A DNA stretch of 62,099 bases, counting the filler, from Streblomastix strix (Eukaryota), in the NCBI GenBank assembly GCA_008636045.1. It is 4 parts of 4 records of this genome, joined end to end, with 100 filler letters (N's around TTAATTAATTAA, not from the genome) between each part and the next. Parts side by side here need not be neighbours in the genome. Positions count along the whole stretch, not along the records: positions 1 to 15,454 come from SNRW01000981.1; 3 more parts are not named here. One strand, written 5' to 3'. The notes beneath the pieces were generated by a model. That model worked only from the letters and a program-made list of their open reading frames with translations, was not told where the DNA came from and ran no database searches. A program made the position numbers and the translations under genes. The stretch's first letter is position 1. Each line of letters opens with the position of its first letter. Positions 3,805 to 59,199 of the stretch are shown here, piece after piece.

Positions 3805-4375
3805 TCAATACTCTATATCATATAATCTTTTAAACTTATTTATATAAATTTTAAGATTTTTGTTATTTGTATCATTAGCACATATAAATAATTATCCTGT
3901 ATGTTTCAGTTCATTAATGTGAAGTTATCGATATTACAATCCATTAAAGTAATAGAAATTGTCATTATCAAAATAAAGAAATTCATACTAATATTATCCA
4001 TACTCATTAACGACTATCGCATCATCAGATAATTAATCTATATAATTATATGTTATATTTCCTTAGTATGATTTATTTTTTTTAATTTTCTGATTTTGAA
4101 CACCGTCTAAGATTAGTCAAATCATTATTTAATTTGTTTTGATCTTTATGATTTATATCAGGTAAATTATCAGGATTAGGTAAGAATTAAATAGCAAGAA
4201 CACGATGATATAAACATGATTTTACATTTAATTTAATTTGCTAATATCCTTTCTAATTAACAGATATTACAGGTATAAACTTATTATCAATTCTTCTAAT
4301 CGTATGTGGTTCTTCAGTTAATATCTCATAATCAGCGTCAACAGTTAATGTTTCCCAATTGTTTTCTTCTGACAT
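3805..4375 (-). pseudogene. HNH homing endonuclease (NUMOD4-like N-terminus + HNH_3), frameshifted
   Basis: MSEENNWETLTVDADYEILTEEPHTIRR...HRVLAIQFLPNPDNLPDINHKDQNKLNNDLTNLR. Confidence 0.8.
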
Positions 4376-4397
4376 ATTTATGTTCAAATAAAAATAA

Positions 4398-5416
4398 TCA
4401 TTTTTTTTTAAAATTTCAAATTTTCCTATCCATTTGTTCAAAATAATGAATTCAAATTTCTTTAATGTGTTGTACAGTAACTGAAACTCATCAAAATTTA
4501 AATTTTATATTGTATTTTCTTCATAAACCTGTTTAAGATCACTCTCACCGATGTTTATGCCTAAACAAATTACATGGGTTAATATCCTTGCTGTCTTGAA
4601 CAAATAAGTTGGACGTTAAGCTATAAAGAAAATAGTGTTTTTACTATGTCTTGAATCACTAACGAGATGCGTTATTGTTTTTGATAATTATGAACTGAAT
4701 CGTTAGATATCTGCATTAGATCCAATATCATCAAATAACATTAATGTGTTTAATAATTAAGCTTTTTCCAATATATGTATTTTCATTATTTTAATGTCTG
4801 CATTTTACTCATCATCCGTAGTTTTGTATTTCTTTTAATAACTAACGTTTTGAATTAGCGCAGAGATATCGAATCTTAATATCTTGGTTGGTTAGCTATA
4901 TGTATTAATTGTTTCGATTACTTTTTATTTGAATAGTTCAGCAATTCTATTAAGATAATCATTAGGTTTTTCATTCTTTTTTATCTCATTATTTTATAAT
5001 ATCTATTCTTCCATTCGTTTAATGAAATCACTAGTATAAGATTATTTTTACTCATTCATCTTGCACCATGTATACATCTCTTTAGTTGAGTATTTTATTT
5101 CATCAAATTCAGGTAGAAATACCATTGCATCTCCATAAGTAACATTCGTTAATTAAATTTTCTTACTATTTAGGTTTAATGCCATAGTTTCATCTGCTCC
5201 ATAATTCGAGAAGTATAATATGAATGGATCGATGATTTTTTTATATGTCACAATTAGCTTACACATTAATGTTGTTTTACCACTTCCAACAGCTCCAACA
5301 ATATAATGATTTCCATTAATAAGGAACAATGAATTCTTCGTTAATGGTGTAGTTTTATATTCGTTCAATAGATCTTGATTAGTAAATGTTATATCTTATA
5401 ATTCCTTTAAAGTCAT
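4398..5416 (-). CDS. A32/FtsK-like DNA packaging ATPase (internal frameshift)
   Basis: Walker A IVGAVGSGKTT, Walker B LMLFDDIG, then SRHSKNTIFFIAQRP typical of A32-like ATPases. Confidence 0.85.
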
Positions 5417-5432
5417 TTTCAAAAATAATGAA

Positions 5433-5801
5433 ATGAATATACTTAGTTTGATCATGGGAATAATGAATTACATGTTTTATGGTGTTAATTTTGTAACATC
5501 AATTATATCTGTATCAATTCCTGATAAATTGATGGATACCGTTAATGTAGTAAAAACATTATGGATTTATTTTGATTTAGTATTGGTCCCATTAAATATA
5601 ACGATTTACGTCATACAATTCTTTTACAGAAGAAAAATGGACAAGAATTAGCCAAGCATTCATTGGTCATAGCTATCTGTAGAATAAATCGAAACACTTT
5701 TAAATGAAGCAATAGCCAATAAAGATTTGGAATTAGCAACACATTGGCGATATATCCTGTATCTTAAAATGTTAAATAACCCTAATAAATAAATTGTTTG
5801 A
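5433..5801 (+). CDS. Small viral protein with hydrophobic N-terminal half (putative membrane protein), 122 aa
   Basis: Open in code 6; ortholog at ~32568-32966. Confidence 0.65.
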
Positions 5802-6517: not shown

Positions 6518-8159
6518 TCAAACCAACATAAAATCAGATAATGGTTTAGATGTTCCATCCGATAGCAATACCTATAAATCTGATACACCTGATCTAACAT
6601 AGCCCGGAGCAGTTAAATTTGCAGGAAATGTTATAGTTAAAAGATGAACATGATCATTTCTAGCGTAATATTGTGATGTCCCATTAGATGGATTTAAATT
6701 AGGTTTCGGAAGAACATTATTATTTGGTTATACATTAATTGGATGAGCATGATTACTTCTTGCATAATATGATGAATTTCCCGCAGTTCCATTACCATCA
6801 ACATCTTATAGAGGATATGCTGTAGTTACCTAAAATGGATGTTAATGATTTGCAGCGGCATAATAAATTGAATTGCCTACAACACCTGATCCTGTATCTA
6901 CTGATGGTGTAGCAGTTGTAGAAATTTATAATGGATGCTAATGATCAATTCTTGCATATGTATTCTATGCACCAGCAATGCCATTTGGTGAAGAACTTTT
7001 AACAGGAAGTGCTGTAGTTACATTTAATGGATGAGAATGATCGGAACGTGAAAATGTAGTATTAATTCCAACAGATCCATTAAATGTATTTTTTAATCGG
7101 TACATCAGATGAAACATTAATTGGATGTATATGATCACTTCTAGCATATGTATTAGCTAAACCCGCTGTTGCTTCTCCATCAGGAAGGGGATCCACTACC
7201 GATACACTTAATGGATGAATATGATCATTTCTAGCGTAAAACGTTGATGTACCATTATCTCCTTATCCATCTGGTTTTGGAATATTTCCTGCATTAGTTT
7301 CAACATTAATGGGATGAGATTGATTTGATAAAGCATTATCTGTTGATGAACCATATGAACCACTTGCTGAATCAGTTACTGGAATATTTGATGAGAATTA
7401 TAGTGGATGTTAATGATCACTTCTAGCCAATGTAGTTTATGTTCCTACATTACCAGTAGAGCTATCTTTTTCAGGTATAGTTGTAGATACATTACTTGGA
7501 TGTCTATGATCTCCTCTAGAATATTCATTTGAAATACCAGCTGCTGCTATTCCATCAACTAATGATAGTGAATCACTAGCGGGAGCTAATTAATCAGGAA
7601 CAGTATGTCCACTTTGAATCCATTTAATTAATTGGGGAGCTGAGCTATCATAAATATATTTTTATAAATCTTCCGCTGAATAAGCATAATCACCATCTGC
7701 AGCATTAGGTAAATTATATATTTCTTATATAGTCAAATAATATCCTCTAAAGTGTTACTATCTTACTAATTCTTACTGAATAACTACCACATCCTATTAA
7801 AGGTCACTAATATCTCCTTCAAACGAACCGACTGATGCTTATAATTAATTCATTTCATTATCCAGCTACACTATCTAATTTACAAAATCAAAATTAATCA
7901 CTTTCAAATTCTTTATCGTTAGTAATCCATTAGGTTCTATTTTTAATGAAAAATCAGTAGCCATTCCAACAACGATTAAATTATTAGCAGTATATATTAA
8001 TGCTCCATCATTATCTATAAATAATTGATACTCATCATTGGATAACATACTTTATCCTGAATTATCACGTTTCGAATATTGTTTATAATAATAAGCAATA
8101 TCGTTATTGATTAACTATATAACTGTTCGGATTTATTGTTACGATAATGAAGCGTTCAT
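6518..8159 (-). CDS. Long fibre/spike protein with ten ~31-aa YARxDHxHP repeats (one frameshift)
   Basis: N-terminal coiled coil, FRGYY..GDYAY module, then repeats DHRHP, DHQHP, NQSHP, DHIHP, DHIHP, DHSHP, DHQHP, NHQHP, NHAHP, DHVHL resembling phage tail-fibre repeats. Confidence 0.75.
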
Positions 8160-8179
8160 TTCTTCAAAAATAAACTACA

Positions 8180-8389
8180 TCAATTACGTTTATTTACCAG
8201 TCGATCAACTGCTCCTGCAAGATTAGCTCCTGCCCCTAATGCGCCACCAATAGCAGGGTGAATCATTCCAACTGGGCCAGAGATTGTTGATAAAACTTTT
8301 TATAATGCTGATGCAACCCATTAAGCTGCTTTCTTAACACCGCCTAAAATTTTCGATCCAAAATTCGCTATTCCAGAGAAGAAACCCAT
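8180..8389 (-). CDS. 69-aa amphipathic Gly/Ala-rich protein, adenovirus protein VI-like candidate membrane-lytic peptide
   Basis: MGFFSGIANFGSKILGGVKKAAQWVASALQKVLSTISGPVGMIHPAIGGALGAGANLAGAVDRLVNKRN; adjacent to MCP; same length in copy C. Confidence 0.7.
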
Positions 8390-8455
8390 TTTGATTTAAT
8401 ATAAAATTTATTATCATTATCGTCATCAGCGTACAGTTATTTTTGTTTTATTGAA

Positions 8456-10399
8456 ATGTCATTCAATTCTAGTGATTATCTAGCCCGTTTGCAAAAAATG
8501 TAACACTCTGATTACGTTGCTGGTTATATGTAATTAGGTGAAGTATTAAGAACATTAACGATTCATGCTGGATCATTTTCAATTTCCAAGCAATAATTCA
8601 CCGATTAGCCTGTAAATGAACTAACATCTAGTGGAGTAAAATATACTAGAGCACCACTAGGAGCGCGTGGATTAGCCACCTGTTCAATGGAATAAACATG
8701 CTAAGTGAATTTGACAATTACCATTCCTGCAAATACATTAGCGATATAATTAAATGAAACAAATGAAGAAGGAGATGATTTAAATAAGAGAATTAACTTC
8801 AATGGTAAAATAAATTCCTAAGATCCTGTTGCTAAAAGTATTACATAAGCAAATTAAAAGTATTATGGGAAAACAGCTGATGGAGATGAGAAATCTGAGC
8901 GATTACGTTTTTGGCTTGGATTCCCCACTGCGTGTGGACCATTTCACCAATTTCAATTGATGCGTGATGCCACTGCATTATGGCGTACTTCAATATATGC
9001 TAGAGAATAAGCTGCTATTAGTTCTAATTCTTTGAGTGATTTGTGCACAAGCAATAGCGTTAGTGTTTCTCCACTAGAAAGCATCATTAATGGTAAAAGT
9101 CATTGTGGAATATTTATTGACATTCCTCTATCTGATATTGATACGTAATCAGCTACCACTCCTTGGTATTTTAGAATTCCATTTGATATTACATTTAGTG
9201 GTGTTCTTGATCTTAACTAATTAAATCCAATTTTTAATTCATTTCCTGTTCTTACTAGGAATTACGCTTCACTATTTCTATAACTTTGGATATAAGATTA
9301 TCTATAGGATTTGAAGGTAGTTTGGCTTAATAAAACTGATGTTGTTTAAAATTTAAATTTATCTTATCACACGATTCCACCTGAGAAACCGGACATAGTA
9401 TATCTATTAGCTGAACCTACAGTTAATGCGGTATTTAATTATAAGAAATTTAATGTACGGATAGTCAATATGTAAAATGCTGCAAATGCTGATAGAGGAC
9501 CATAGAATAGTATCAGTTAAATTAATAATACACAATTTGAAAAATTAGAGATATAGAATATATGTTTTAATGTTGAAAATGAAGAAGCAATAGTTAACAT
9601 GATTAGAGAGTAAAGAATAGTCAATTTTCCTACCTAAGTATTTAGATCTTAATCATCAAATTTCCCATTTAGTGGTTTTACTGATACAAGTGGAGCTATG
9701 TAAAGTATTATGTCATTCTCTAATATAAAATCACTATTCATGACGTTTGCCATGCCATAGTATCCAACATGGTTTTATCCTATATTATTTTATGATTTTG
9801 ATTTAATTATTGATTAACGACATGTAGTTCCATAGCCATATAACGCTTTGACACAAACAGTTAATGGACTAATGTTTGATTGTTTCGTTGATTAAGATGT
9901 TGTTAGTGCTCCATCAGATTTGTATCATACACTTACATTTGAAAATCTGAATTGCTCTGATAAAGGTGGATTTTATGGACGATACGACATAAATGTATTC
10001 GCTAATATTACATTATTTGTAGGGACAAAAGCATCTAAAACATTATATCCAAACAAATATATGCTTGCATGGAAATTAGCAACTGATGATTCATTTATGC
10101 GAGGATATAACTCATCAAAACAAGGTGCAAGAACAAATATATAAGTTATTTTAGATGGAAATTTGACTAAAGGAGTATTAGATAGTACAGATATAAATAA
10201 AGATTAGAACTGTAATGACTTAAAACAATTTATTGCTATGAGAAGTTATCCTGATCCAACTAAAGCATCTATTACTCCAATGCTACATTATCTATGTGAT
10301 GCATTTATGCGAATTACATTTGATAATAATCCTGATCCATAAGTGTTAAATATTGACGTTATTGGTGAGATTGGCGGAAGTACGATTAATGCTGGTTGA
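8456..10399 (+). CDS. Major capsid protein (double jelly-roll, Maverick/Polinton type), 647 aa
   Basis: 1944-bp frame apparently open in code 6; beta-rich; block FWLGFPTACGPFHQFQL..EQAAI..HCGIFIDI..LDLNQLNPIFNSFP aligns by eye with the contig-B capsid; context next to ATPase and fibres. Confidence 0.75.
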
Positions 10400-10425: not shown

Positions 10426-10551
10426 TCATTTACATATCTTTGATTCGCACGCATATTTGATTGCTGCTTCCCAAATTGTCTTAAAGATAGAATGCCAATT
10501 GATGTTCAATTAATCTAAAGCGTAAATGATTGTCTCATTAAACCCATCCAT
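10426..10551 (-). CDS. Conserved 41-aa viral micro-ORF
   Basis: MDGFNETIIYALDQLNINWHSIFKTIWEAAIKYACESKICK; same length and intact at 38169-38294. Confidence 0.6.
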
Positions 10552-10570
10552 TTGTTTATTTTTAAATATT

Positions 10571-11340
10571 TCAACTTTCTGACTAATTATGAATTGCATA
10601 TGAATCACATACTTATAAACAAAAATCATCAGGTAAACTTAACTAACACTTTGTATTTATTATAACGTTTCCATTAGTATTAATGTAACAATCCATAGCA
10701 ATTGCTCCATTCCAACATATTGGATAACCAATAACTCTTACTGCAAACATAACTGCATTTAATGGTATATTTGATGGTGTTCCACTAAACTTTGGCTTTA
10801 TAGCATTATCAACGATTGAGAATAAAGTATTTCCTGAATCCCATACTGTATTTGGATCCTTGTGAGTTATTTACAGTGAAATATATACTCTACTATTTTA
10901 TGTTGTTACTGTACCCCATATTCGTTACTCATACATTCCATATGCAATTGATGAATAACGTGCATTCGCAATTGGTTCATAGGCCAATTGATCTTTATCG
11001 ATTGTATCTCCATTAGCTAATACAATTTAGTTGCTTGTTCCACCTTATTTAACAATTTTACTAGCTATGATGGGTTATAAAAATGTCTTGATTCTTGTTA
11101 TAAATTAATCAGTACTTAATGTTACAAAATTAGTTAAATCAACTTTAATTTTTTAAAGAATTAACTCAAATAATTGAAGTACTTAATGATCTCAGTATCA
11201 ATGATTTATAACAACAAATTACGTTCTTTAATTTATTTTTATTACTCTTCCTACAATTATATTAATTTAATTGCATGATCTTATTACATAAATTATTCAT
11301 CTTCATCAATCATATCTAAATCACTTAATTATTGATCCAT
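10571..11340 (-). CDS. Second, short fibre-like protein (coiled coil + shaft motif + beta-rich knob), one frameshift
   Basis: DLTNFVTLSTDQFITRIKTF...IVKQGGTSNQIVLANG is the shaft motif also seen in the other fibres; beta-strand-rich C-terminus. Confidence 0.6.
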
Positions 11341-11366
11341 TTTTATTGCAAAAATAATTGCTGCTC

Positions 11367-11929
11367 TCATTCATAATTACCATTCCTTAATCGATCAATA
11401 TATAAACGAATCTTTTTGTGGTTTATATCGATTACATTAATAAGATCATACGGTAAATTAGGGTATTAATGAACTATTAACTTTCTAAATTTAAGACCAT
11501 TATGGATATATACATTAAAATCTTAATCAAAGCTGTATCCTTCTAAATCATGTCTATTATACGTATCTAATCGTTAACAACCAATTGGTAATTTATCAAA
11601 ATATTCAAATTTAGTTCTATATACAACTTTATTTTTCTAGTTATCTGAATGAGAGACCCAACGTAAGTTCTCTAATCGATTATCTGTTTTAATTTGGTTC
11701 ATATGATCAATTTCTGAAAGGTTATTAGGATTTGGTAAATATTATGTTGCTAATATGAGATGTAATAAATGATATTTACAGTTTAACATTATTCTTTGAT
11801 ACCCCGCTGACTAAATATTTAATGTAGGAATATATCCATTAGAAATTTTCCTTATTGTATGTGGTTCATTTGTCAGTATTTCATAATCGTCATTAACAAT
11901 TAAAGTTTCCCATTGTTTTATTCTGCCAT
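11367..11929 (-). pseudogene. Second HNH homing endonuclease (frameshift near start)
   Basis: WETLIVNDDYEILTNEPHTIRK...LHLILATQYLPNPNNLSEIDHMNQIKTDNRLENLRWVSHSDN. Confidence 0.85.
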
Positions 11930-11952
11930 TTATTATTTAAGAAAAATAATTA

Positions 11953-12620
11953 TCAAAAATCATTATATGTAATCTCTACTTCTGGTGCATCAGATAAACG
12001 AACAAAGTCACAATTGACTCGATACAGTTTCTCAATAGAGTTGAAAAGCACATTGTCTAGTACTTTAACTGATACATTTTTAATTAATATATCCATAACG
12101 CGAGTCAAATCTTTCTTTTTATATGATTTACCTATGCATGAATGAGATCACATTAATGGTTCTTCTAGTACAATTTCTATATCATTTTCATTTTCTTACG
12201 TGATTAATGACCAAAGTTTAATGAAATTATCTGATGAGAATATGAAATCATCTCCTCTTTTTCTTGTAGTTATCGTTTTCCATAATTGGTCAATAATGAA
12301 TTTCATAACGGCTGGGTTAGGATGTGAAAGATAAGTATCTTTAATTACTTCTTCTGGTTCAACTTAGCAGTTGTTCTATCAACTTCCTAATACTTTTTAG
12401 TGCTATATTTACTCTCATATTTAGTAATTTTTTATTCTGTTAGGATTAATTGTTCAGGCGTTGATGTAATAATTTCCTTCTCAGTTTATGTTTCATTTTC
12501 TTTAGGTTTGATGGATTCATTGACAGTTTGCATTGATTTAATCCTACTAATTGCTTCATCGATCAATTGCAATCTTATTTTATCCTCATACGTTAATTCT
12601 TTATGTTTAATCTCAGACAT
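11953..12620 (-). CDS. Viral hypothetical protein (~220 aa, disrupted)
   Basis: Code-6 ORF conserved at 39593-40289 (YLSHPNP.VMKFI...TTRKRGDDFIFSSDNFIKLWSLI). Confidence 0.6.
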
Positions 12621-15454: not shown

Positions 15455-15554
15455 NNNNNNNNNNNNNNNNNNNNNNNNNNNNNNNNNNNNNNNNNNNNTT
15501 AATTAATTAANNNNNNNNNNNNNNNNNNNNNNNNNNNNNNNNNNNNNNNNNNNN
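15455..15554. other. Artificial contig linker
   Basis: N44-TTAATTAATTAA-N44. Confidence 0.98.
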
Positions 15555-21480: not shown

Positions 21481-23193
21481 TCATCTTTCAATCTAATTTA
21501 TCATTTTATCAAATGTGCTATTAACATCATATACATATTAACATCCATTAACAGGTCCAAACAACCAGAATATATCATGAATTGTGCATAGAAATGGTGG
21601 AGGTGGTCTTTTAACCATTAGATCAACAATATACTAATAATCTGTATCACCTTGATAAATTGGTGCTCCTCTTAATTCTATAGACATATTTTAGTACTGA
21701 ATATCTAATCCATTAAATGTTAATGCTCTATTACTATTTCTTTCACATTAAAATGTAATCAAGAATGAAGTAAGATAAATATGATGATTTAATCTTTTTA
21801 AAACAGCGTGTCTTGGTGTAGTAAAAGCATCTTTAAATTCATCAGTTGCTTCGAGTAACAGATCTAAATTATTTGCATTCAATTACATTTAGAAGAATTA
21901 ATAATCTAGTATATTCATTGGCATATCTGAAAAAATTTCTATCACATGTTGTAACTTACATATTATGATAGCATGGATTTTCATAACAAGTTGTTGCTCT
22001 AGCATCTTTTGGAAACAGCAAGCATAAACCTGTAACATGAGACAATGGAATATTTTATGATGTTCTAATTCCTGTTGTAGTAGCACTTGTTGGGAATGAC
22101 CATGCTTCAACTCTCTGTGAAGGTACAACAAATGGTCTATTAGCATAGAATTCACGTACTCTTTATAAACAGTCATCTTTTGCCTTGTATCTGCTCATAT
22201 TTGCAGTCACCTCAGTTACTACATAATTTTTTATTGATAATGTCTAGCGAGAAATGTTGCATATTAAATTCTTCTAGCCTCTATCTGTTAGTTATTCCAT
22301 ACTTATTGTTGTGATTAAATCTGCAGTACATCGCATTTCAGTAAATTATTTTGTATATTAATATCTTAAACTCCAATTTCTAAAGAGTAGATCAGTGCTC
22401 TTCAATTTATCAGGTCCACTAGCCATAAGATCAGTCTTATTCATAATGTAGTATTTAGCCATGCTAATAAATTGATTCACTTATACAAATTCAAACGTAT
22501 TGGAATTAATTTTAAATTTAATTTTAAGATCACCGAATAGAGAATTAGAATGGTCTATATAAGCACTGAATATAAGGATATGATCTAATGAAATAGATAA
22601 TCTAAATCTGATTGGCATAGTATATTGAATAGAAACTTGATCTTCAATAGATTCTTCTATATCTCTCATTGTCACATAAGTACCACAAGCTGATGTATCA
22701 ATTTTATGGAAATTTTAATATAATGAGTGAAAAAGTTTTCTATTATTTTTCTCATTTCTTGGTTTAATAGTGTTATAGATAAATTATTCGGTAGTTGAAC
22801 CATTCTACAATGTTCCATCAATAGTTCTGATTCTATGATAAATAGTGTATTCTCCTATAATTTAACTGACTGATTTTAATCCAATGAACAATACAGTTCC
22901 ATCTTTATAAGATTCTTCAAATCCTTCAAACTTGTTATCAAACAGCATATTAGCTGAGAGTACTATTGAAAAGAATGAATTCTAAATTTATGTTATGTCA
23001 TGGTCCGTATCAGATAAACTAATTAATATTTTTTATCGAATAAGGCAAGCATTTAAGACTGTGGTTTGATTTCTTTGATTGAGTAATGATGTTCTCCATC
23101 ATTTCTAAATGCATCAACAGAATTACTTTTTAGTGTTGCTTCGATAGTTCCAAGTTATTGCAAATGCATTGATTTATTGAGAATGTAGTTCAT
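21481..23193 (-). pseudogene. Major capsid protein, lineage B (disrupted)
   Basis: VLFIGLKSVSQIIGEYTIYH..TEQFIYNTIKP..SACGTYVTMRDI..ISLDHILIFSAY..FGDLKIKFKIN; same motif pattern as 8456-10399. Confidence 0.75.
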
Positions 23194-23269
23194 AATTTAA
23201 TTGAAACAAAAATAAACTAATCTTATGCAGTAAGTTAAACTTTGAAACTAATTATTTTCAAAAATCTTA

Positions 23270-23684
23270 TTCATTTACTTCTTGAATATTGTATGGAGAA
23301 GTTGTATTATATTGTGAACCATTTACAGTTTAATGACTTGGAATGGCAAGATGAGTTCCAACAGTTTTATTTATTTTTCTTGAGACATTCGGATTAAATC
23401 TTATGTATCAATTATTTTCAATTAACTATCTTACTCTATGTTCATCAATGAAATTCCCTGCATCATTTAAAAAATTAGCCAAGTTCATTATTCTGTTTTA
23501 AGCGTTATTTGCACATATTACATCTAAACCACTTGACGCAGCATATAAATCTTTACTTATTATAGGTGGTGCTAGTGTGCTAACAAATGGTTTAATATTT
23601 TTTTTATATATGTAAGTTTGTCCAATTTTCTCCATAATCAATTTTTTGTACTATTAATTTGATTTTATGAAAGATTCCAGCCAT
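23270..23684 (-). CDS. Small protein with N-terminal amphipathic helix, adjacent to MCP
   Basis: MAGIFHKIKLIVQKIDYGENW...; positional analog of 8180-8389; 3' end approximate. Confidence 0.5.
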
Positions 23685-31007: not shown

Positions 31008-31107
31008 NNNNNNNNNNNNNNNNNNNNNNNNNNNNNNNNNNNNNNNNNNNNTTAATTAATTAANNNNNNNNNNNNNNNNNNNNNNNNNNNNNNNNNNNNN
31101 NNNNNNN
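31008..31107. other. Artificial contig linker
   Basis: N44-TTAATTAATTAA-N44. Confidence 0.98.
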
Positions 31108-35928: not shown

Positions 35929-36138
35929 TCATCCACGTTTATTGACTAATCGATCAAAATCACCTGCTAAATTAGCTAATGCACCTAATGTGCCACTAAT
36001 AGCAAGATGAATCATTCCAACTGGGCCAGATATAGTTGATAAAACTTTACGTAATGCTGGAGCTACCCCTTACGCTGCTTTCTTAACACAGCCTAAAATT
36101 TTTGATCAAAAATTCGCTATTCCAGAGAAGAATCCCAT
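35929..36138 (-). pseudogene. pVI-like amphipathic peptide, copy C (GGA>TGA at codon 11)
   Basis: Ortholog of 8180-8389, same 210-bp length. Confidence 0.7.
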
Positions 36139-36204: not shown

Positions 36205-38150
36205 ATGTCATTCAAATCTAGTGATTATCTAGCCCATTTGCAAAAAACGTAACACTCTGATAACGTAGCGGGTTACACGTAATTAGGTGAAGTATTAAAA
36301 ACATTAACTATTCATGCTGGATCATTTTCAATTTCCAAGCAATAATTCACCGATTAACCAGTAAATGTACTAATATCTAGTGGAGTAAAATATACTAGAG
36401 CACCATTAGGAGCAAAGGGATTAGCCACCTGTTCAATGGGACAAATATGCTAAGTAAATTGGACAATTACCATTCCTATAAATATTTTAGCAATATAATT
36501 GAATGAAATAAATCTTGAAGATAGTGAATATAATAAGAGAATTAACTTCAATGGACTAGACGATTCATAAGCTCCGATGGCAAAAGGTATGACATAAGCT
36601 GAATAAAAATATTATAGAAAAACAGCAGAAGGAGAAGAGAAATCTGAGCAATTACGTTTTTGGCTTGGATTCTCAACTGCATGTGGGCCATTTCACTAAT
36701 TTCAATTGATGCTTGATGCCATTGCATTATGGAGTACTTCTATATATGCAAGAGAATAAGCTGCTATTAGTTCTAATTCATTGAGTGATTTGTGTACTAG
36801 CAATAGCGTTAGTGTCTCTCCATTTGAAAGCATCATTAATGGTAAACGTCATTGTGGAATATTTATTGAAATTCTTCTATCTGATATTGATGAATAATCA
36901 GCTACAACTCCTTGGTATTTTAAAATTCCATATGATATTACATTTAGTGGTGTTCTTGATCTTAACTAATTAAATCCAATCCTTAACTCATTTCCTGTTC
37001 TTACTCGGAATTATGCTTAACTTCATCTATAGCTCTGGATATAAGATTATTGATAGGATTTGAAGATAGTTTGGCTTAATAAAACTGATGCTGTAAAAAA
37101 TAAACACTTAGCTTATCATATGATTCCACCTGAGAAACCGGATATAGTATATCTATTAGCTGAACCAACTGCTTAAGCAGTATTAGCATATAAGAAATTT
37201 AATGTACGAATAGTCAACATGTAAAATACTTCATTAGGTAATAGATTGCCATAGAATAGTATCAGTTAAATTAATAATGCACAATTTGAAAAATTAGAGA
37301 TATAGAATATATGCTTTAATGTTGAAAATGAAGATGCAATAATTAATATGATTAGAGTGTAAAGAATAGTTAATTTTCCAACCTAAGTATTTTGATCTTA
37401 ATCATCAAATTTTCCATTTAGTGGTTTTGGATCAAGTGGAGCTATGTAAAGTATTATGTCATTCTCTAATATTAAATCACTATTAATGACGTTTGTCATG
37501 TCATAGTAACCAACATGGTTTTATCTAATATTACTTAATGATTTTGTTTTAATTATTTATTAACTGCACGTTATTCCTGCACTATATGAAGCATTGACGC
37601 AAACCGTTAATGGACTAATGTTTGATTGTTTCGTTGATTAAGATGTCGTTAGTGCTCCATCAGATTTGTATCATTCATTTACATTTGAAAATTTCAATTG
37701 TACTGATAGAACTGGTGGCTTTTATGGGAAAGATAGTGTCAATGTATTCCATACGTCTACACTATTTGAAGGGACAAAAGAATCCAAAACACTACATCCT
37801 AACAAATATATGCTTGCATGGAAATTAGCTACTGATGATTCATTTATGTGTGGCAATAATTCTTCAAAATTAGGTGCTAGAACTAATATATAAGTTATTT
37901 TACATAGTAATTTTACTAAAGGAATATTAGTTAATACAGATACGAATAAAGATTAGAATTAAAATGATTTAAAACAATTTATTGCTTTGGGAAGTTATCC
38001 TGATCCAACTGAAGCATCCATTACTCCAATTATGCATTATCTATGCGATGCATTTATGCGAATTACATTTGATAATAATTCTGATCCATAAGTGTTGAAT
38101 ATCGATGTAATTGGTGAGCTTGCTGGTAGTGCGATTAATGCTGGTTGGTT
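36205..38150 (+). pseudogene. Major capsid protein, copy C (internal TGA, stop mutated)
   Basis: Colinear with 8456-10399. Confidence 0.75.
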
Positions 38151-46558: not shown

Positions 46559-46658
46559 NNNNNNNNNNNNNNNNNNNNNNNNNNNNNNNNNNNNNNNNNN
46601 NNTTAATTAATTAANNNNNNNNNNNNNNNNNNNNNNNNNNNNNNNNNNNNNNNNNNNN
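46559..46658. other. Artificial contig linker
   Basis: N44-TTAATTAATTAA-N44. Confidence 0.98.
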
Positions 46659-50137: not shown

Positions 50138-50715
50138 GTTGCTTTTATATTAATAGTTATTTTTGTACTTCAAGTTATTTGATATTTATATAGTTTATTT
50201 ATTTTTATTTCATTTCTTCCATAGCCAAAATTATATATAGTTAAATAGCTACATTTTATTTAATAAATAACCTAACACTATTTCAAATATTTAAACAATC
50301 ATTCCAACCTTATATAATTCTTTTCAAATGATGAATAAAAATTTTCAATTAATTATTAGAAATTTTGTTATCATGCAACTGCTGAAAACGAAAAATGAAG
50401 ATTTTAGATTATTCAACTTTTGGAAATAATTGATATTTATTATAATAAATTAAAAAAAAATTAAAAAAATGTCCCAAATCCAAAAAATGGATTCTGATAT
50501 TTAACGAATATTGGAATTATTAGCAGAAAAAGAAAAGAAAATCTTGCGTCTGAAAGAAGTTTAATCTGATGTAATTAATTTGACTAAGCAAGTCAAAAAA
50601 AAACGCTCCAAAAGATGTTCAGATCTAACAGAACATGGTTCTAGAAGCTGCATCACATAACTCTCCTGTTTAAGTGAAATAGTAAACAATTCTTCTCCAT
50701 AACAAATATAATATT

Positions 50716-50995
50716 AATAATATATATAGGCTACACCACAGGGTTTTAATTCTGCAGCGCTATTTGTATACATAATCTCCACGCCAAATCTCTATCAATA
50801 CTAAGGCATAATTTAGCCATGATAATTGTAACCATAATCTCCGCGCCAAATCACTATACCTACAAAACCCGATAATGTCACGGCTGGTGACAATTTCATC
50901 AATAAGACGTATATTTTAATACCACAGATTACTATTTTATTTACATTATTTATATCCATAAATCCTTTGACACAAATGAACACATTCATCATCAA
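50716..50995 (+). repeat. Left TIR (contains an extra 62-bp unit)
   Basis: Reverse complement of 56890-57107. Confidence 0.92.
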
Positions 50996-51009
50996 AAATA
51001 ACAATATCA

Positions 51010-54000
51010 TCATTTACTCAAAGAGTCAGAATGCAAAACATTATCAATTAAGTAATGATCTGCATTAACTTCATATATTAATGAAGCCCAACATCCGTTA
51101 GATATCACAACCATTTTATTATGAATTTCTGTTAGCACTGATTTTTCAGTACTAATCACGGATATTACCCTCATTTTCATCTATAAATTATTAGTTGTCA
51201 CATTGATGTTCACACCGTCATTCAAGCATTTAATATAGTCATTAGTTGTTAGATTAGACTTCTTTTCACTAGCACCTTTCATTCTATTCACTAATGATAC
51301 TATGTCATCATTTTATTCATTTCCATTGTATAGACAATAACATTTTGGTGCAAGACAAATGATATTTTCACCTTATGATTCAGTTGTGATCCCAATTAAT
51401 TTCTTCTCTTCTGCAACAGTACAATCATTCCATGGAAGCCATTCTTTATAGTGTAGTCATAGAACTCTTAGTCTTTAATTACGTACTTCAATCCATATTT
51501 ATAACCTTTAATTTTTGATCCTGCAAAAACTAAATATATTTAGTCGGTATCTATAATACAGAAATGAACTCTATCCATATTAATACATTAATAGAGGAAG
51601 TTATTTACAAAATTTAGATACCGGAATTTGCTATTATCTAGTGTAAATACAGCTTCTTGAAGAGGCATATTTCATTTATATTGTCTAAATGATTCACTAA
51701 CCATATATTATGCTTCTTCAATTAATTCATCATCAGAATTGTATATATCATCATTTAATTTCCTTGTTGCCTTATGACACTAATTTAATTATTTGATTGA
51801 AGCATGTCGAGCATCATTAAAGGATATCTTATCAAACTTTGCATTATTTTATCCTTCTCCTCTGAAAGCACTATTTAGAATTTATTTGTAATATAAGGAT
51901 TTTGTGTCATTATGTAATCTAATTGCTTCCTATCTCTTACTTATCATTGTACATACAAAAAATTCAAATCCTAAGTATTTATCGAATAGTGCAATTGAAT
52001 CAATATCATCAATAATAAAGTTACAATTGTCAATCAAAAAAACCATAAAATATTGCTTGTGAAGATCATGAATTGATTTTGTGTTGATAGCAATGATGTT
52101 AATTTTGTAGTTGATTTGTCAACAGTTATTTCCTATGCACTCATCTTATTATACATAAATTCTCCAATCTATTCAATTGAATTATTATATGTTAATTTTC
52201 TACATATTGGAGCAAAATTTATATGTGTATTAATATGTTTTTCATCAATATGACCTTTAATTTTGATATAGAATGGCTATCATTTATCATTAAATCTATC
52301 AGCACTCATAATTACATCACGAGCTTTCTATTTTGAATTAGTAGATGTACATTTGAGATAATTAGTTACTCCACCTGCTTGATATATTCGATGATTTGTA
52401 TAAGGGTTATTTTTGTTGAAGACTCCACTAAATACACTTGGATAGAGAGAGTTGAAAGCTAAATCAGGAATGAGAGTAATTCTATGTTAGGTTTCATATG
52501 GTGTTATTGTTTTAGTTACATAATTATATCTAAGTTTCTTAATATGTGTGATTCCCTTCAAATTTCATTAATGATACACACTAGATAAACCACCTTACAT
52601 ACATTCCTTTTACATATTGTATAAAGATTCATTGTTAATTATCATAGGTAGATGTTCATTGATTGCATATTTCAATAGTTGTATCTATAATTTACTAATA
52701 TCATTATCTTTGTCAGCCTTAACTGTATTACATATTTTACAAGCTAGTTAACAATTCTATTTTGTATGACCGACTTAATTATCTATTCTATCTAAAGTTG
52801 GTTTTTTTAGTGAATTTGTTGTTATGTAGATGACATATTTCACTTGTTAATTTATCTCTAATCCAATCAATATCATCTTCTGTAACATTATTTGTTGTAT
52901 CTCTTCTTGCATATTCATCTTGATTGATATTTCCCTTTACTTTATTATTCCACCAGTATTAAGTAATTTCAAACTATTCAAAACTTTTAACAATATTGTA
53001 ACTTGCATCGATATCAAACATTCCAAAACAGTATTTATACTTAATTTGATTAGCAATTTGAGCTAATGATATGCATCCTAACATATCAACTTTCTCTTTC
53101 CACGTAATATTAAATAGAAGATTGATTGTGTTAATCATACAGGTGACGTCCCTAATATTATTGTGCTTTAGATACTCCTATCTATTATCAAATTTGATTG
53201 AATCATTAATGTACTGTTCATAATATTTATTATTAATGTTTCTATTGTTAAGTTTGTCATAAAAATCTTCCTTAATGAATGGTGTTGTTTATCCAAATAT
53301 TTATTAATAGTTATCATAATTGAATGATCCATGTGGAAATATACCCTTTGTTAGTTTTATTTCTTTTGTTCCATATTTCTCAATGAATTACTTTAATGTG
53401 TTGTTTAATGGAATAAAGGACAATATATCACCAAATCTCAAATCAAAATCATAATCTTAATGTGATACAATTGTTTATTTAGCTTGAATTGTTGATTCCA
53501 AATATTAAATTTTAGTCTTGTTTTTAATTAAGTGTTTGAGTAATAAATTCATATCGAACTTCTTAGAATTGAATCCTATAACTGATACTTGAGGCTTATA
53601 AGGAATATAACACTTATCATCAATTGTAACTTCAGGTACATTCGATTAATTTGCTTCGTTTACTTTAATAGCAACCTCAAACAATTAATTTATCCATTAT
53701 TCAATAAAATCAGTTCCGTTTCATAAAGCAAAATGTAAAGTAGAAATTTAATCATTTACTGTCACAGCTGATGCTACAGACAGAGGCTCTAATTAAGCTA
53801 TCACAGTGTTTACTTTAATTATGTTCTCAAATGTCTCAAAATCAAATGTAATGTAACTAGGTATTAGTGTTAATTATTCCAATTACCCTGTTGCAATTAA
53901 TTTATATAATAACTTATTATTTGAAACATGATAATAATATGGCTTTGGTAAATTATCTAATTTAAGTTATTTAGATGTCTCAGGACCTTAACAATACTTC

Positions 54001-56128
54001 TAATGCTTTGCAAAATCACGCTTATAATTCTATTTCTTAATATTAAATATTTTCTAACAATTATTGAGACAGAGTTTTTCATTAATTATCTTATCAATAT
54101 CAGTAATATACATAGCATGAATTTCATCCACTAGTGATAATGGAACTAATAAAACTTTAACAGTTAGATAGTCTTTGTCAATAATATATTCTTCAAATTT
54201 GTTAAATTATTCGACATCACTACGATTGGTTTTAGGTTTCACCCATTCACACATGTATGTTATTACATTTAGCTCAAATAATTATTAATATCTTTCAAGA
54301 TCAGTAACTTAAATAAATTCTTTATATGATTCGAGTAATTATTTATTAGCTTTATTTAATCTACAGTTTGGATTGATATCATGATATTAGATTAATAATT
54401 TAATAGCATCACTAATTCGACTCTTTATTTCAATAATATCAGGGTCTAAAGCAAATTATGCAACTATAAACCAACAAATTTTGTAATCACATTCTACATT
54501 TCTAGTAATTCCTTCTTTATTGAAGTGCAAACATATTTTATCCATTTTAGTCCCTAATGGAAGTCTATAAACAACAATCAAATCCGAAAATTGTGGTACC
54601 TTTAATGTTGCTGAGTCTTCATGAATACAGTCTTAATAATCTGCTTTCATATAAACAGCTTTCTAGTTGAAATAATCATTAATTTGCTTATCTCGAACTA
54701 CTGCATTAGGTAGAGTCTTATAACTATCATCAGCACTTGGTCTGGTGCATAAATAATTATATTCATCTAATATTTGATAATGCTTATATATGTATCTTTT
54801 TTTCTTGTATATAGATCCAAAACTAATATATACTTTATAGGTTTTAGCTTTCTATAACTCATATATCTATTCGAATTCATCTTTAAGTTTTTATAAGCCA
54901 TAGAAATGATTGTAATAGTACTACATATATGGCTCTATATTTTCTATACCTTTTGATAATTATAATAAGTTAGGTAACCTATCTGTACTAACTTCATTCT
55001 TTTCTAAATATCTCTTGCGTGCCTGATTTAGTGCTACATAATAGGCTGATAAGTTCTATGATGTTAAGATAACGAATGCTTTCTAATCAAGTTCCCTATT
55101 TTTATTTAATTACTCTGTTTTTGTCATATTCGGTTCATTAAAGTGATCCTTATGTAATCCATAATATTCATCATTAAGCTTTTTCACTCTTCTATTAAAT
55201 TCTTTTGCACCTAATTTTACTTCTAGATATTTGAGAATTTTAAATGATTTTTCACCCTATCTCTTGTATCTAGAATTGATAAGTATGTATTATAACTATT
55301 CATATAACTTATGTCTTTTTCATTTACTCTTAATCACTTTAGCTGCATTAATTGATTATTTCATTAGTTATTATGCTAAATGCTTACGATAATGCTTTTG
55401 GATTAGTTTAACTGATTTATTCTGTTTCTCTAATTTGTCTTTCAATTCTTGTATCTTTATTGATGCAACTATTCTTAATGGTCTAATTCTTATTAATGTT
55501 TCAATTATTATTCAACTTGTAATTATTTATAATTTGAATTAATTTACTTTGACTAATATATTTAATCTTCCGAATTAAATTCTTTTCTTTATATATTATT
55601 TAATGTATATAATGATTCTTATAATTTATGTATCTAATTAGTGATTTATTGCTAGACTTGTAACAATTATTATTTACCCTATTTTCGACCGCTTTCTTCA
55701 AATTAATATTTGTAATTAGCTCGATATTTATCAGGATTGAATATTCCATCATCAGAAATGTCAGAATTGTTCAATTCATTTATAATATCATCAATATTTG
55801 TAGTTAATTATGGTTTTTTTTATTAATTGCTATCAATTACTACTATTTATTATCTGTTTCTATTATTGGTTTTAAGTAGGGTAGTTGTTATTGTTCAAAT
55901 TATTCCAATTATTATTACTATTAATTATTTCTTTCAGCAATAATTTGATTTACAAATGCAACAATTTCAGTTGTAATAGTTATATGACCTTGATAATGTA
56001 AACGATGTAGTTCATTATTTAACATATTTCTTAAATCAACTGCTGTGTAGTTAGGTAATTATATAACTTATAATTGGTCTAGTAAATTTTGAATCTATTC
56101 TTTACTCATTCTATATTTTTTCTGCCAT
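51010..56128 (-). pseudogene. Protein-primed DNA polymerase B polyprotein (putative terminal protein, OTU-like protease, Zn finger, exonuclease, HNH-like insert, polymerase); several frameshifts
   Basis: ExoI YITFDFET, ExoII IGFNSKKFD, KGIFPH, motif A LAFNSLYPS, motif B YKQILNSAF, motif C IIDTD, CLAPKCY, MKG. Confidence 0.92.
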
Positions 56129-56271
56129 TTGTATGAAGAAAAAAAAGTTACTTTATTCGTGAGTCATTTTTCTAAATTTTTTATTTTTAATAAATAACAT
56201 AAGAATTTAAGTTGTTATTAATGCAAATCCCATCAATCAAATCTCCTAAACAAATGCGTTAATTTGTAAAA

Positions 56272-56592
56272 ATGAATAATGAATTATTATCCTATGTAGC
56301 AATATTCACTTTAAATAGATATATGACAATACTATAATTTTCATTCCTTCGAATATATGGTTAGATTCATATATAATTTGACGGTAAATGTAGATCTAGA
56401 TAATCTGAATTATTGCATTAATATATCAACTTAGCAGAGCTCAAACCAAAGGTTTCTGCTGGCGAAGCTGACTTTTTGAAGAAAATTGAAAACATAAATG
56501 CTATAAATTAGATAAGTGAATAATTTGATAATATTAATGAAAATTCGGATAGACTATATATTACTTTTGTCTATAATATTTTTAGTTATTGA
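56272..56592 (+). CDS. 106-aa orphan ORF divergent from pPolB inside the element
   Basis: Open in code 6: MNNELLSYVAIFTLNRYMTILQFSFLRIYGQIHIQFDGKCRSR... Confidence 0.5.
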
Positions 56593-56889
56593 TACATAAA
56601 GCATACAAGTATTTGAAATTATTTGAAAAATTTTAGTAGTTTATTTCTTATTATTTTAACACACAACCCTATAGCACTATGACAATTTATATATATATTT
56701 GTGATGTACCTAGTGATCTAGACTTTACATAGAAATAATTGATATATTTAGTCTATTAATTGGTGAAGAAATTAATAGTTAAAATTGATATATTTTTCAT
56801 TAATTTTGAAAATAATTCATTTATTTCTTAAAAAATTTTGAATAATTTTGATAAATATTTTAAATACTAATTCAAATCATTTATACATT

Positions 56890-57107
56890 TCATTGATGTA
56901 TGTATTCAATTGTGTCATACGATTTATGGATATAAATAATGTCAATAAAATAGTAATCTGTGGTATTAAAATATACGTCTTATTGATGAAATTGTCACAA
57001 GCCGTGACATTATCGGGTTTCGTAGGTATAGTGATTTGACGTGGAGATTATGTATACAAATAGCGCAGCAGAATTAAAACCCTGTGGTGTAGCCTATATA
57101 TATTATT
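56890..57107 (-). repeat. Right TIR
   Basis: Inverted copy of the left end. Confidence 0.92.
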
Positions 57108-59199
57108 AATATTCCAAAGAAAAATTATAGGATGAAAAATAGGGCCCAACAAGCGTATATCGAAATGTAATCTAAGGTGGATTAGGACTACTTATGATAT
57201 GTTTGCAGACAGTAGCTTCATATTTAATTGCACACACTGCATCATCTTGTCTAAATACTGGAAGAAGAGATATAGATTCACTATATATAAATTCAACAAT
57301 ATTTATAAAAAATATTTTAGTAAAAATTCCAAAATCAAGAATTTCAGGAACATCGTCTAGCGAATAACCATTTATATCTTTTTTTGATATATTTTCAAAT
57401 GATATTCAATAGCTTAAATTATTCTACTTATAATTTCTTATAACGGTCAGAAAAAAAGTTGAATAATAACTATTTGAGTTATTAGAAGATGATGATGACG
57501 ATTAAAAATAGATATAGAAAACAAATGCAGATAATGATAATCAAAATTTAAACTCAAATATTTACTCAAAAGTTACTATCTCAAAGGAAATAAAAGACAA
57601 CTACGAAGTGAAAGTAATAATTATAAGAAAAAGCTCAAAAATGGCAAAAAAAAGAAATTGACTGTTAAATTGATAACTAAGAAACAGAAGTTCCTATAGA
57701 ATAAATGCTAACAAGAAGAAAAAAGTACAAGAGAAGAAATGAACAAGGAAAACGAAGAAATAACAAAAAAAATTACTAAAAGAAATAAAAATTATTCATA
57801 TAATAAATATCTGGACTATAAATGCTGTTATGATGAAGATATTGAAGATGAAAAAATTTGGAAACATAACATAAGGGTTGGTTTCAGCTGACCTAATTTA
57901 TATATGTTTTTATTTAAAATACAATACATTCAATTATTCTATTTTCTGTTAAATTGATCAAAATTTTAGGAAATATCTATTCAAGTTGGAAATTTCATTT
58001 AAACTTTGAAAAAATAAATTTAAATGCATTTTTCTTTAATATTTTAAATTTATTAATTAATGCAAATATAACAAATACAAATATAACATTGATTAATTAA
58101 TAGAAATAAATTAATTAAATTATTTTTTTCAATAAATTATGTTAAAATTATAAAAAAATTAAATTTGCAGTTAAGTGGATATAAAATAAATTTTTTTTTT
58201 AAATTGATTCATTAAAAATCATATATTGCTATAAATAAATAAAATTTAATGTATAAAATTAAAAATGTGCGATTATAAGTAAGGTTTTCAACCAAATTTT
58301 AATTTCATTTTTCTTCGACAAATTTTTGGAATGATTAATAAATATTTATTATTAAATGATAATAAATATTAAAAGATTTATGTTGTTTATGAAATATTTC
58401 ATATTTTAAAATATTATTCATATACCTGGTATAAACATACAATGTTTATCATTTTTACATTTCCCCCCGCTTTAGACGTTACATAGATTCGATCAGTCAT
58501 ATAATATTTATCAAATATGTTAATATTGTTAAAAAAAATAAACTTACCAAAATGAATAAAATTAAATTAATAATCAGTTTGAAAATGAATAAATACATAC
58601 GCGTTTGATTGTAGTTAAATATAATAAAATTTATAAATATAAATTAAATAAGTATGTTATATTAAAAATTTATATCATACAAATATTGAAATTGGTTTTT
58701 TTCCGATTGAAAAATTCAAAAAATAAAATATTTAACTGTTTTTTCAATAATATTTTTATAAAATAGTACATTTTATATAAATATCAGTCATTTAATAATT
58801 TTAAAGATGAGTAATTACAAAATTGAGATATGATACATACCAGATAACGCGAAACGAACTCTTGTGAATAATTTTCTTAAATAATAGGTTAACGAATAAA
58901 AATTTATTTTACTTGTTTTTGATTTATTTTATAAATACATAAGATAAATAATTCTTATTTTGTATTTTTATTGAAAATTATATTTTTGTATATAAAAATA
59001 ATAATTTTTTACGAAAATACTATTTTTTCGATGTATAGGCATTATTTTTTAATAATATTAATTTCACGGAAAATAATAAAATTAAATTCGTATAATTTAA
59101 TTATTAACTCAAACATAAATTATATTGGCTGAGAGTCCCCATATAGGTTTAAAAAGAACTGTTATAACAAACTCAATTATTATTGAAGGTAAGACTCTC

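Follow-up and report, generated by a model that had tools for sequence, protein, structure and literature searches.

A family of small capsid-linked proteins in protist Polinton-like viruses, with a predicted amphipathic helix and a short motif resembling that of adenovirus protein VI

Analysis of endogenous viral DNA from the termite-gut protist Streblomastix strix shows that protist Polinton-like viruses possess a real and undescribed family of small proteins, whose genes accompany those of major capsid proteins. The member studied here is a 69-residue protein with a predicted cationic amphipathic helix, and from its sequence characters it is probably a membrane-active entry protein packed in the virion. 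A description of the family was not found in the open-access papers searched. As means by which protist viruses cross membranes, lipases and SLATT pores have been proposed (PMC12220804, in part), and for mavirus a helix in the capsid tail (PMC6048507, in part); the small-protein family offers a concrete candidate for this role in protist Polinton-like viruses.

The window, by which we mean the whole stretch of 62,099 nucleotides analysed, is made up of four pieces of about 15.5 kb each, joined by spacers of the form N44-TTAATTAATTAA-N44 (15455-15554, 31008-31107 and 46559-46658); since these are four joined scaffolds, distances across the three spacers are meaningless. The window is AT-rich and its long ORFs exist only under genetic code 6, the code used by the host S. 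strix (PMC10120064, in part). The same source, in the portions considered here, describes endogenous viruses of this oxymonad that use the code of their host, gives 820 major capsid protein (MCP) hits for S. strix and speaks of Metamonada-group endogenous Polinton-like viruses, with which the window elements have host and genetic code in common. Copies A (piece 1) and C (piece 3) represent one element, at about 85% identity, and piece 2 holds a separate lineage, B. The copy A element is an endogenous Polinton-like virus of S. strix.

An earlier note on this DNA had singled out a peptide beside the capsid gene, starting with Met-Gly, and under code 6 its gene, a minus-strand ORF encoding 69 aa (8180..8389), proves to be real and intact in copy A. 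It is open only with TAA and TAG as non-stops, two TAA codons within it being translated as Gln. A distance of 66 bp separates its start from that of the 647-aa capsid ORF on the opposite strand, and the AT-rich spacer between these divergent starts (8390..8455), which has a near-identical counterpart in copy C, putatively contains a promoter common to both genes. In copies A and C alike, the small gene ends in a stop that overlaps the beginning of the following gene. The copy C gene (35929..36138, minus strand) has the same length as that of copy A, as the note had said, but is not intact, with a TGA stop at codon 11. Between copies A and C the small gene has a dN/dS of 0.30, and the capsid gene a similar value of 0.35.

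The adjacent gene (8456..10399, plus strand; 647 aa) is predicted to encode the major capsid protein of the element, with a double jelly-roll fold. The sequence has 193 relatives, and several of the at least 120 listed are named Major capsid protein in UniRef. The structural model is weak (pLDDT 51); with it, Foldseek lists among its PDB matches nothing but capsids or scaffolds of the double-jelly-roll type (none below 0.001, the best at E 0.0016), four BFVD matches fall below 0.001, namely adomavirus LO7 and capsids of a cedratvirus, a virophage and a pithovirus (best E 4e-5), and the top four VIA rows have the double-jelly-roll fold (Z 4.5-5.1). Its counterpart in copy C (36205..38148, plus strand) has stops at codons 283 and 397. 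The lineage B capsid gene survives as fragments (21481..23200, minus strand, limits approximate), assigned by a by-eye match to the S. strix MCP row in the part of the PMC10120064 supplement considered here, and in sequence it does not match the capsid of copy A (hhalign against A9, P 0.1%). The copy A type was not found in the examined part of that supplement, and may constitute an uncatalogued group, with members in metagenome contigs of standard code as well.

Proteins similar to the small protein form 75 clusters, of which 72 are named S. strix hypothetical proteins and three are JGI records. When 1.84 billion proteins were searched with a profile, 86 matches emerged, some from additional lineages of the S. 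strix type and others weak and distant; the latter (P0270-P0276, from ENA, Logan and JGI records) have E-values of 5e-4 to 1e-3, and among them P0271 and P0276 may be chance matches. P0269 looks like a repeat artefact. The stand-alone proteins of the family range from 66 to 135 aa. A metagenome scan with the small-protein alignment gave no match, and the viral-contig collection yielded relatives of neither the small protein nor the capsid. Scanning metagenomes with the capsid alignment recovered three loci (L001, L002 and L003), the third of which ends inside the capsid gene. The other two use the standard code, have an ATPase related to that of copy A, and encode a relative of 68-69 aa directly after a 27%-identical capsid gene (hhalign P 94%). 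Their small genes are separated by a dS of 1.6 and a dN of 0.04, the resulting dN/dS of 0.025 denoting strong purifying selection, and residues 1-49 are identical in all seven members of the L001 cluster. Many divergent copies are present in three termite-gut runs from three studies, one of which is possibly the source sample, and nine of ten in-ORF variants, among those listed, occupy third codon positions. The dN/dS values of 0.025 (L001 against L002) and 0.30 (A against C) rule out a spurious antisense or chance ORF. A host antimicrobial gene is likewise ruled out, since in contigs of standard code the relatives keep their place next to capsid genes, and the matches to factor D, ribosomal S5 and EsxA are at chance level.

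Lineage B widens the range of capsids concerned. An amphipathic N-terminus had been claimed for the gene next to its MCP; this N-terminus is located at 23684, and the protein also proves to be a distant relative of the family, whereas the gene itself (23261..23684, minus strand) is frameshifted and carries an internal stop by comparison with its intact relative P0196 (135 aa). The latter does not match the narrow family profile (P 2%), reaches P 60% with the wide profile, and is 31% identical to P0278 over 95 aa (pairwise E 2e-6). Capsid linkage is seen in window copies A, B and C; five further small-protein/capsid pairs with consecutive locus tags on contigs of equal length were picked out by eye among the matches, and 18 of 153 database proteins carry antisense capsid 5' sequence. 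The kinship of P0196 and lineage B, together with L001/L002 and copy A, places the small gene with three capsid lineages, where its position is variously divergent, downstream or upstream. The claim of adjacency to the capsid gene is supported, as a conserved capsid-linked gene in the window copies and in L001/L002; it does not extend to the distant members P0270-P0275, which come without genomic context. Kept across such different capsid lineages, the gene could serve to mark those elements that pass through an extracellular stage.

The tight linkage to the capsid gene and the near-invariance of residues 1-49 would also suit a protein-protein interface, and hence a structural component of the virion (a cement, a scaffold or the lining of an inner membrane) whose amphipathic face binds capsomers or internal lipid with no lysis of the host. 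Amphipathic helices do serve as capsid cement or scaffolds, and the best full-length matches of the family are coiled-coil bundles and tape-measure proteins, with a weak match to T7 gp7.3 (E 1.5-2.2). We nevertheless regard such a role as unlikely: the gene is recognisable beside capsids that have no detectable sequence in common, and the polar face is rich in Lys, with no acidic residue in positions 1-61 and a net charge of +6, as in lipid-binding helices. A complex prediction for the L001 capsid monomer and the L001 small protein, run without alignments, scored 0.00 and speaks neither for nor against this role.

The properties of the helix itself favour the membrane-active entry protein. It is predicted for residues 2-33 (8291..8386, minus strand) from the hydrophobic moment, a shuffle test and AlphaFold, the last giving a single helix over residues 3-68 (pLDDT 74.7). 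The moment, suggested earlier as a check, indicates amphipathicity beyond chance, at 0.49 for residues 2-33 (shuffle p 0.00015) and 0.54 for residues 2-19 (shuffle p 0.003), with a best helical angle of 99 degrees over residues 2-33; just 0.03% of 20,602 18-mers from capsid proteins reach this moment. The pattern is also conserved, with a moment above 0.5 over residues 2-19 in 46 of 61 registered homologs. Residues 2-33 contain four Lys and no acidic residue. The Gly/Ala-rich tail, previously described as hydrophobic, is so only mildly, its best Kyte-Doolittle 19-mer (residues 25-43) scoring 1.15, a value that rules out a transmembrane tail. Myristoylation, considered possible on account of the Met-Gly start, did not hold up: the window protein fails the PROSITE pattern, and the fit of only 10 of the 74 Met-Gly members, including all seven of the L001 cluster, rules it out as a family-wide feature. 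Gly2 is kept in 48 of 53 copies, and may serve Met removal instead.

The feature that had drawn most attention was a likeness to the lytic helix of adenovirus protein VI (pVI), whose gene adjoins the hexon gene. The resemblance is concentrated in residues 2-14 (8348..8386, minus strand), which contain N9-F10-G11-S12 and are identical to the pVI stretch of PDB 6b1t_X at 7 of 13 positions; in five family members the figure rises to 8 of 13, a count reached by some S. strix lineages. When the N-terminal 25 residues encoded at L001 were compared with PDB, just two sequences were returned up to E 10, both of them pVI (E 2 and 4.4). A 25-residue, three-row profile (A5), which included the window peptide, placed pVI first in PDB, with five of eight hits and a best E of 0.009, a value to be read in the light of two points: both the 13-mer and the 25-residue fragment were picked post hoc, the resemblance having already been seen, and the three A5 rows include two identical ones. 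On four family PSSMs the pVI 13-mer scores 25-26 bits, which a null preserving the polar/apolar pattern reaches at p 5e-7 to 2e-5, whether or not L001/L002 are included. The amphipathic N-terminal 25-mer of lineage B, searched against PDB as a control, had no match. These comparisons support the view that the motif common to the family and pVI exceeds what the helical pattern alone explains. The proposed profile comparison was less favourable at full length: the wide profile found pVI in PDB at E 0.74-1.8 (profile positions 5-17, 12-13 positions), behind designed coiled coils, and 57 + 22 members gave no match to the Pfam pVI family. Nor was pVI found with the window peptide alone against PDB or with the narrow profiles A1 and A3.

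Adenovirus pVI is made as a 250-aa precursor that is cut at both ends by the viral protease, provides a protease cofactor from its C-terminus and has a PPxY motif (PMC4113798 and PMC2841620, in part). The small protein resembles it in combining a motif of 10-13 residues with an amphipathic helix in a virus with a double-jelly-roll capsid, but differs in its length of 69 aa, in a motif that begins at about residue 2 with no propeptide found, in lacking PPxY (0 of 153 proteins in the first 130 residues) and in showing no similarity outside the motif. The likeness claimed earlier therefore survives as a short motif and an amphipathic helix, while length, PPxY and propeptide speak against membership of the pVI family, and the protein is predicted to work like pVI without being filed as one. 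Whether the family is a true homolog of the pVI lytic helix, in the form of a stand-alone 69-residue protein independent of protease in protist Polinton-like viruses, is doubtful, although the idea merits tentative consideration. Convergence is a real alternative, given that the window peptide alone misses pVI, that full-length searches give E 0.7–1.8, and that maximin-1 matches equally well. Were the homology true, the adenovirus protein would have an origin in protist viruses, and its endosome-escape device would descend from the entry peptide of a polintovirus ancestor, with propeptide, PPxY and protease cofactor acquired afterwards; were the likeness convergent, it would show clearly that double-jelly-roll viruses have arrived at the same lytic motif on two occasions.

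Maximin-1 is identical to window residues 11-21 at 9 of 11 positions. Like cecropin, it is a secreted animal peptide with a helix-hinge-helix layout, and what these peptides and the small protein have in common is this layout and a cationic helix, a likeness that must be convergent; the maximin-1 match therefore acts as a control against over-reading the pVI motif. The L001/L002 proteins match the cecropin family of Pfam at E 0.034, the ESM Atlas, queried with P0197, returned only unnamed clusters (0.89-0.90) and a cecropin (0.76), and phage tape-measure families matched weakly (E 4e-4 to 0.02). Together, the maximin-1 match and the weak tape-measure repeat matches indicate that short near-identities arise by convergence in such helices. 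The nearest look-alikes (pVI, maximin-1, cecropin and tape-measure proteins), all of them weak, are membrane-active or membrane-associated helices.

A cationic helix of the cecropin or maximin type, for which neither a masking propeptide nor a protease was found, could also act outside the virion, as a viroporin or lysis peptide that permeabilises the host cell or nuclear envelope late in infection, at exit. We consider this improbable in view of the missing transmembrane segment, the position of the gene within a structural module, where in A and C its stop overlaps the following gene, and the resemblance of its motif to that of an entry protein. For the entry protein that we prefer, Met removal would leave an N-terminal Gly-aromatic helix equivalent to mature pVI and lacking a propeptide, so that a viral protease would not be needed. 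The protein would be made late with the capsid module, and its helix shielded inside the capsid until freed on partial uncoating. The helix would then settle among the lipid head groups, its Lys face turned to anionic lipids, and break up the host vesicle or plasma membrane during entry, and the Pro/Gly-rich second half could provide a hinge and a second helix for self-association or capsid contact.

Comparable genes have been proposed in animal viruses. Adomavirus LO6, which is pVI/pX-like with moderate HHpred hits to pVI, was detected in virions by mass spectrometry (10.1101/341131, in part); the cupiennin-like genes of adintoviruses were proposed to be small membrane-active virion genes (PMC8502044, in part); and a hypothetical, polyphyletic class, Macc (membrane-active capsid core), groups such genes (PMC11071296, in part). 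The members of this class (LO6, cupiennin-like, PLA2X and GasderminX) are, like the small gene, small and predicted to be membrane-active, and belong to the virion module of mid-size DNA viruses, but they come from animal viruses, LO6 is cleaved by protease, and the comparison is made from descriptions alone. The small gene has two features of the class, a position in the virion module, beside the capsid gene, and, by prediction, a membrane-active domain. Similar proteins having already been proposed in adintoviruses and adomaviruses, what is new is a minimal, stand-alone form in protist viruses. The portions of the main text of PMC10120064 considered here mention neither 'protein VI' nor 'amphipathic'. 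The more pX-like than pVI-like character of LO6 (in the part of its description consulted), along with the small size and net charge of +6, would also fit a basic DNA-binding core protein comparable to adenovirus pX/mu, with incidental amphipathicity. Such a protein is most improbable here, given the few Arg residues, the strong conserved 100-degree periodicity and the lack of a pX match in any PDB or Pfam search.

The genes around copy A bear on a further claim, namely that the helix points to infectious virions. Downstream of the small gene, a repeat-rich gene (6518..8180, minus strand), whose ATG overlaps the small gene's stop, is frameshifted; it has no significant Pfam family and appears fibre-like. 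It is followed by a P-loop ATPase running into an HNH domain (4025..5659, minus strand), 28% identical to the L001 ATPase (E 1e-31) and with a putative role in packaging. Beyond the capsid gene lies a gene that is possibly fibre-head-like (10426..11370, minus strand), frameshifted with a frame change near 11150-11190 and open in copy C. Penton, polymerase, integrase and terminal inverted repeats were not identified in copy A, which is degraded and on a scaffold perhaps cut; Pfam found no protease among the scanned frames of copy A or within 9.8 of the 13.5 kb of the L001 contig, both genomes being incomplete. With neighbouring genes broken in copy A and two stops in the copy C capsid, infectious virions do not follow from the window copies, and we know of no virus particles of this lineage. 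The small gene does indicate an extracellular stage of the lineage, present or past, and the intact, strongly selected genes of L001 and L002 suggest that active relatives exist.

Among the database proteins, 23 of 153 continue from the small ORF into the repeat gene downstream of it; in many of them the join comes directly after residue 64, and in copy A a GT follows residue 64 (window 8180-8200). Since the acceptor points vary, these joins are likely a gene-caller artefact; a spliced helix-fibre fusion of the small ORF and the downstream gene is conceivable.

Several other features were observed in the window and in the metagenomic loci. Copy A has two related HNH stretches, at 4050-4450 and 11367-12077, that are 47% identical; the second is an HNH endonuclease on the minus strand (Pfam HNH_3, E 2e-9) and is absent from copy C, a pattern in keeping with a mobile homing gene. 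Beside copy A, positions 1-2700 are GC-richer (41-47%), with gag-like and broken frames, and are probably a retroelement remnant. A 6.4-kb unit at 50710-57113, between inverted repeats at 50710-50991 and 56894-57113, has broken minus-strand frames, whose motifs we take to recall family B DNA polymerase (with no match in Pfam), and no capsid gene was seen in it. In L001, a 701-aa ORF (7338-9443), with no Pfam match, has a C-terminal part that is penton-like by eye. Finally, the capsid genes of L001 (1777-3774) and L002 (1564-3558) are separated by a dS of only 0.044, whereas six flanking genes have dS values of 0.75-2.0, a contrast suggesting that two otherwise diverged viruses recently exchanged their capsid gene only.
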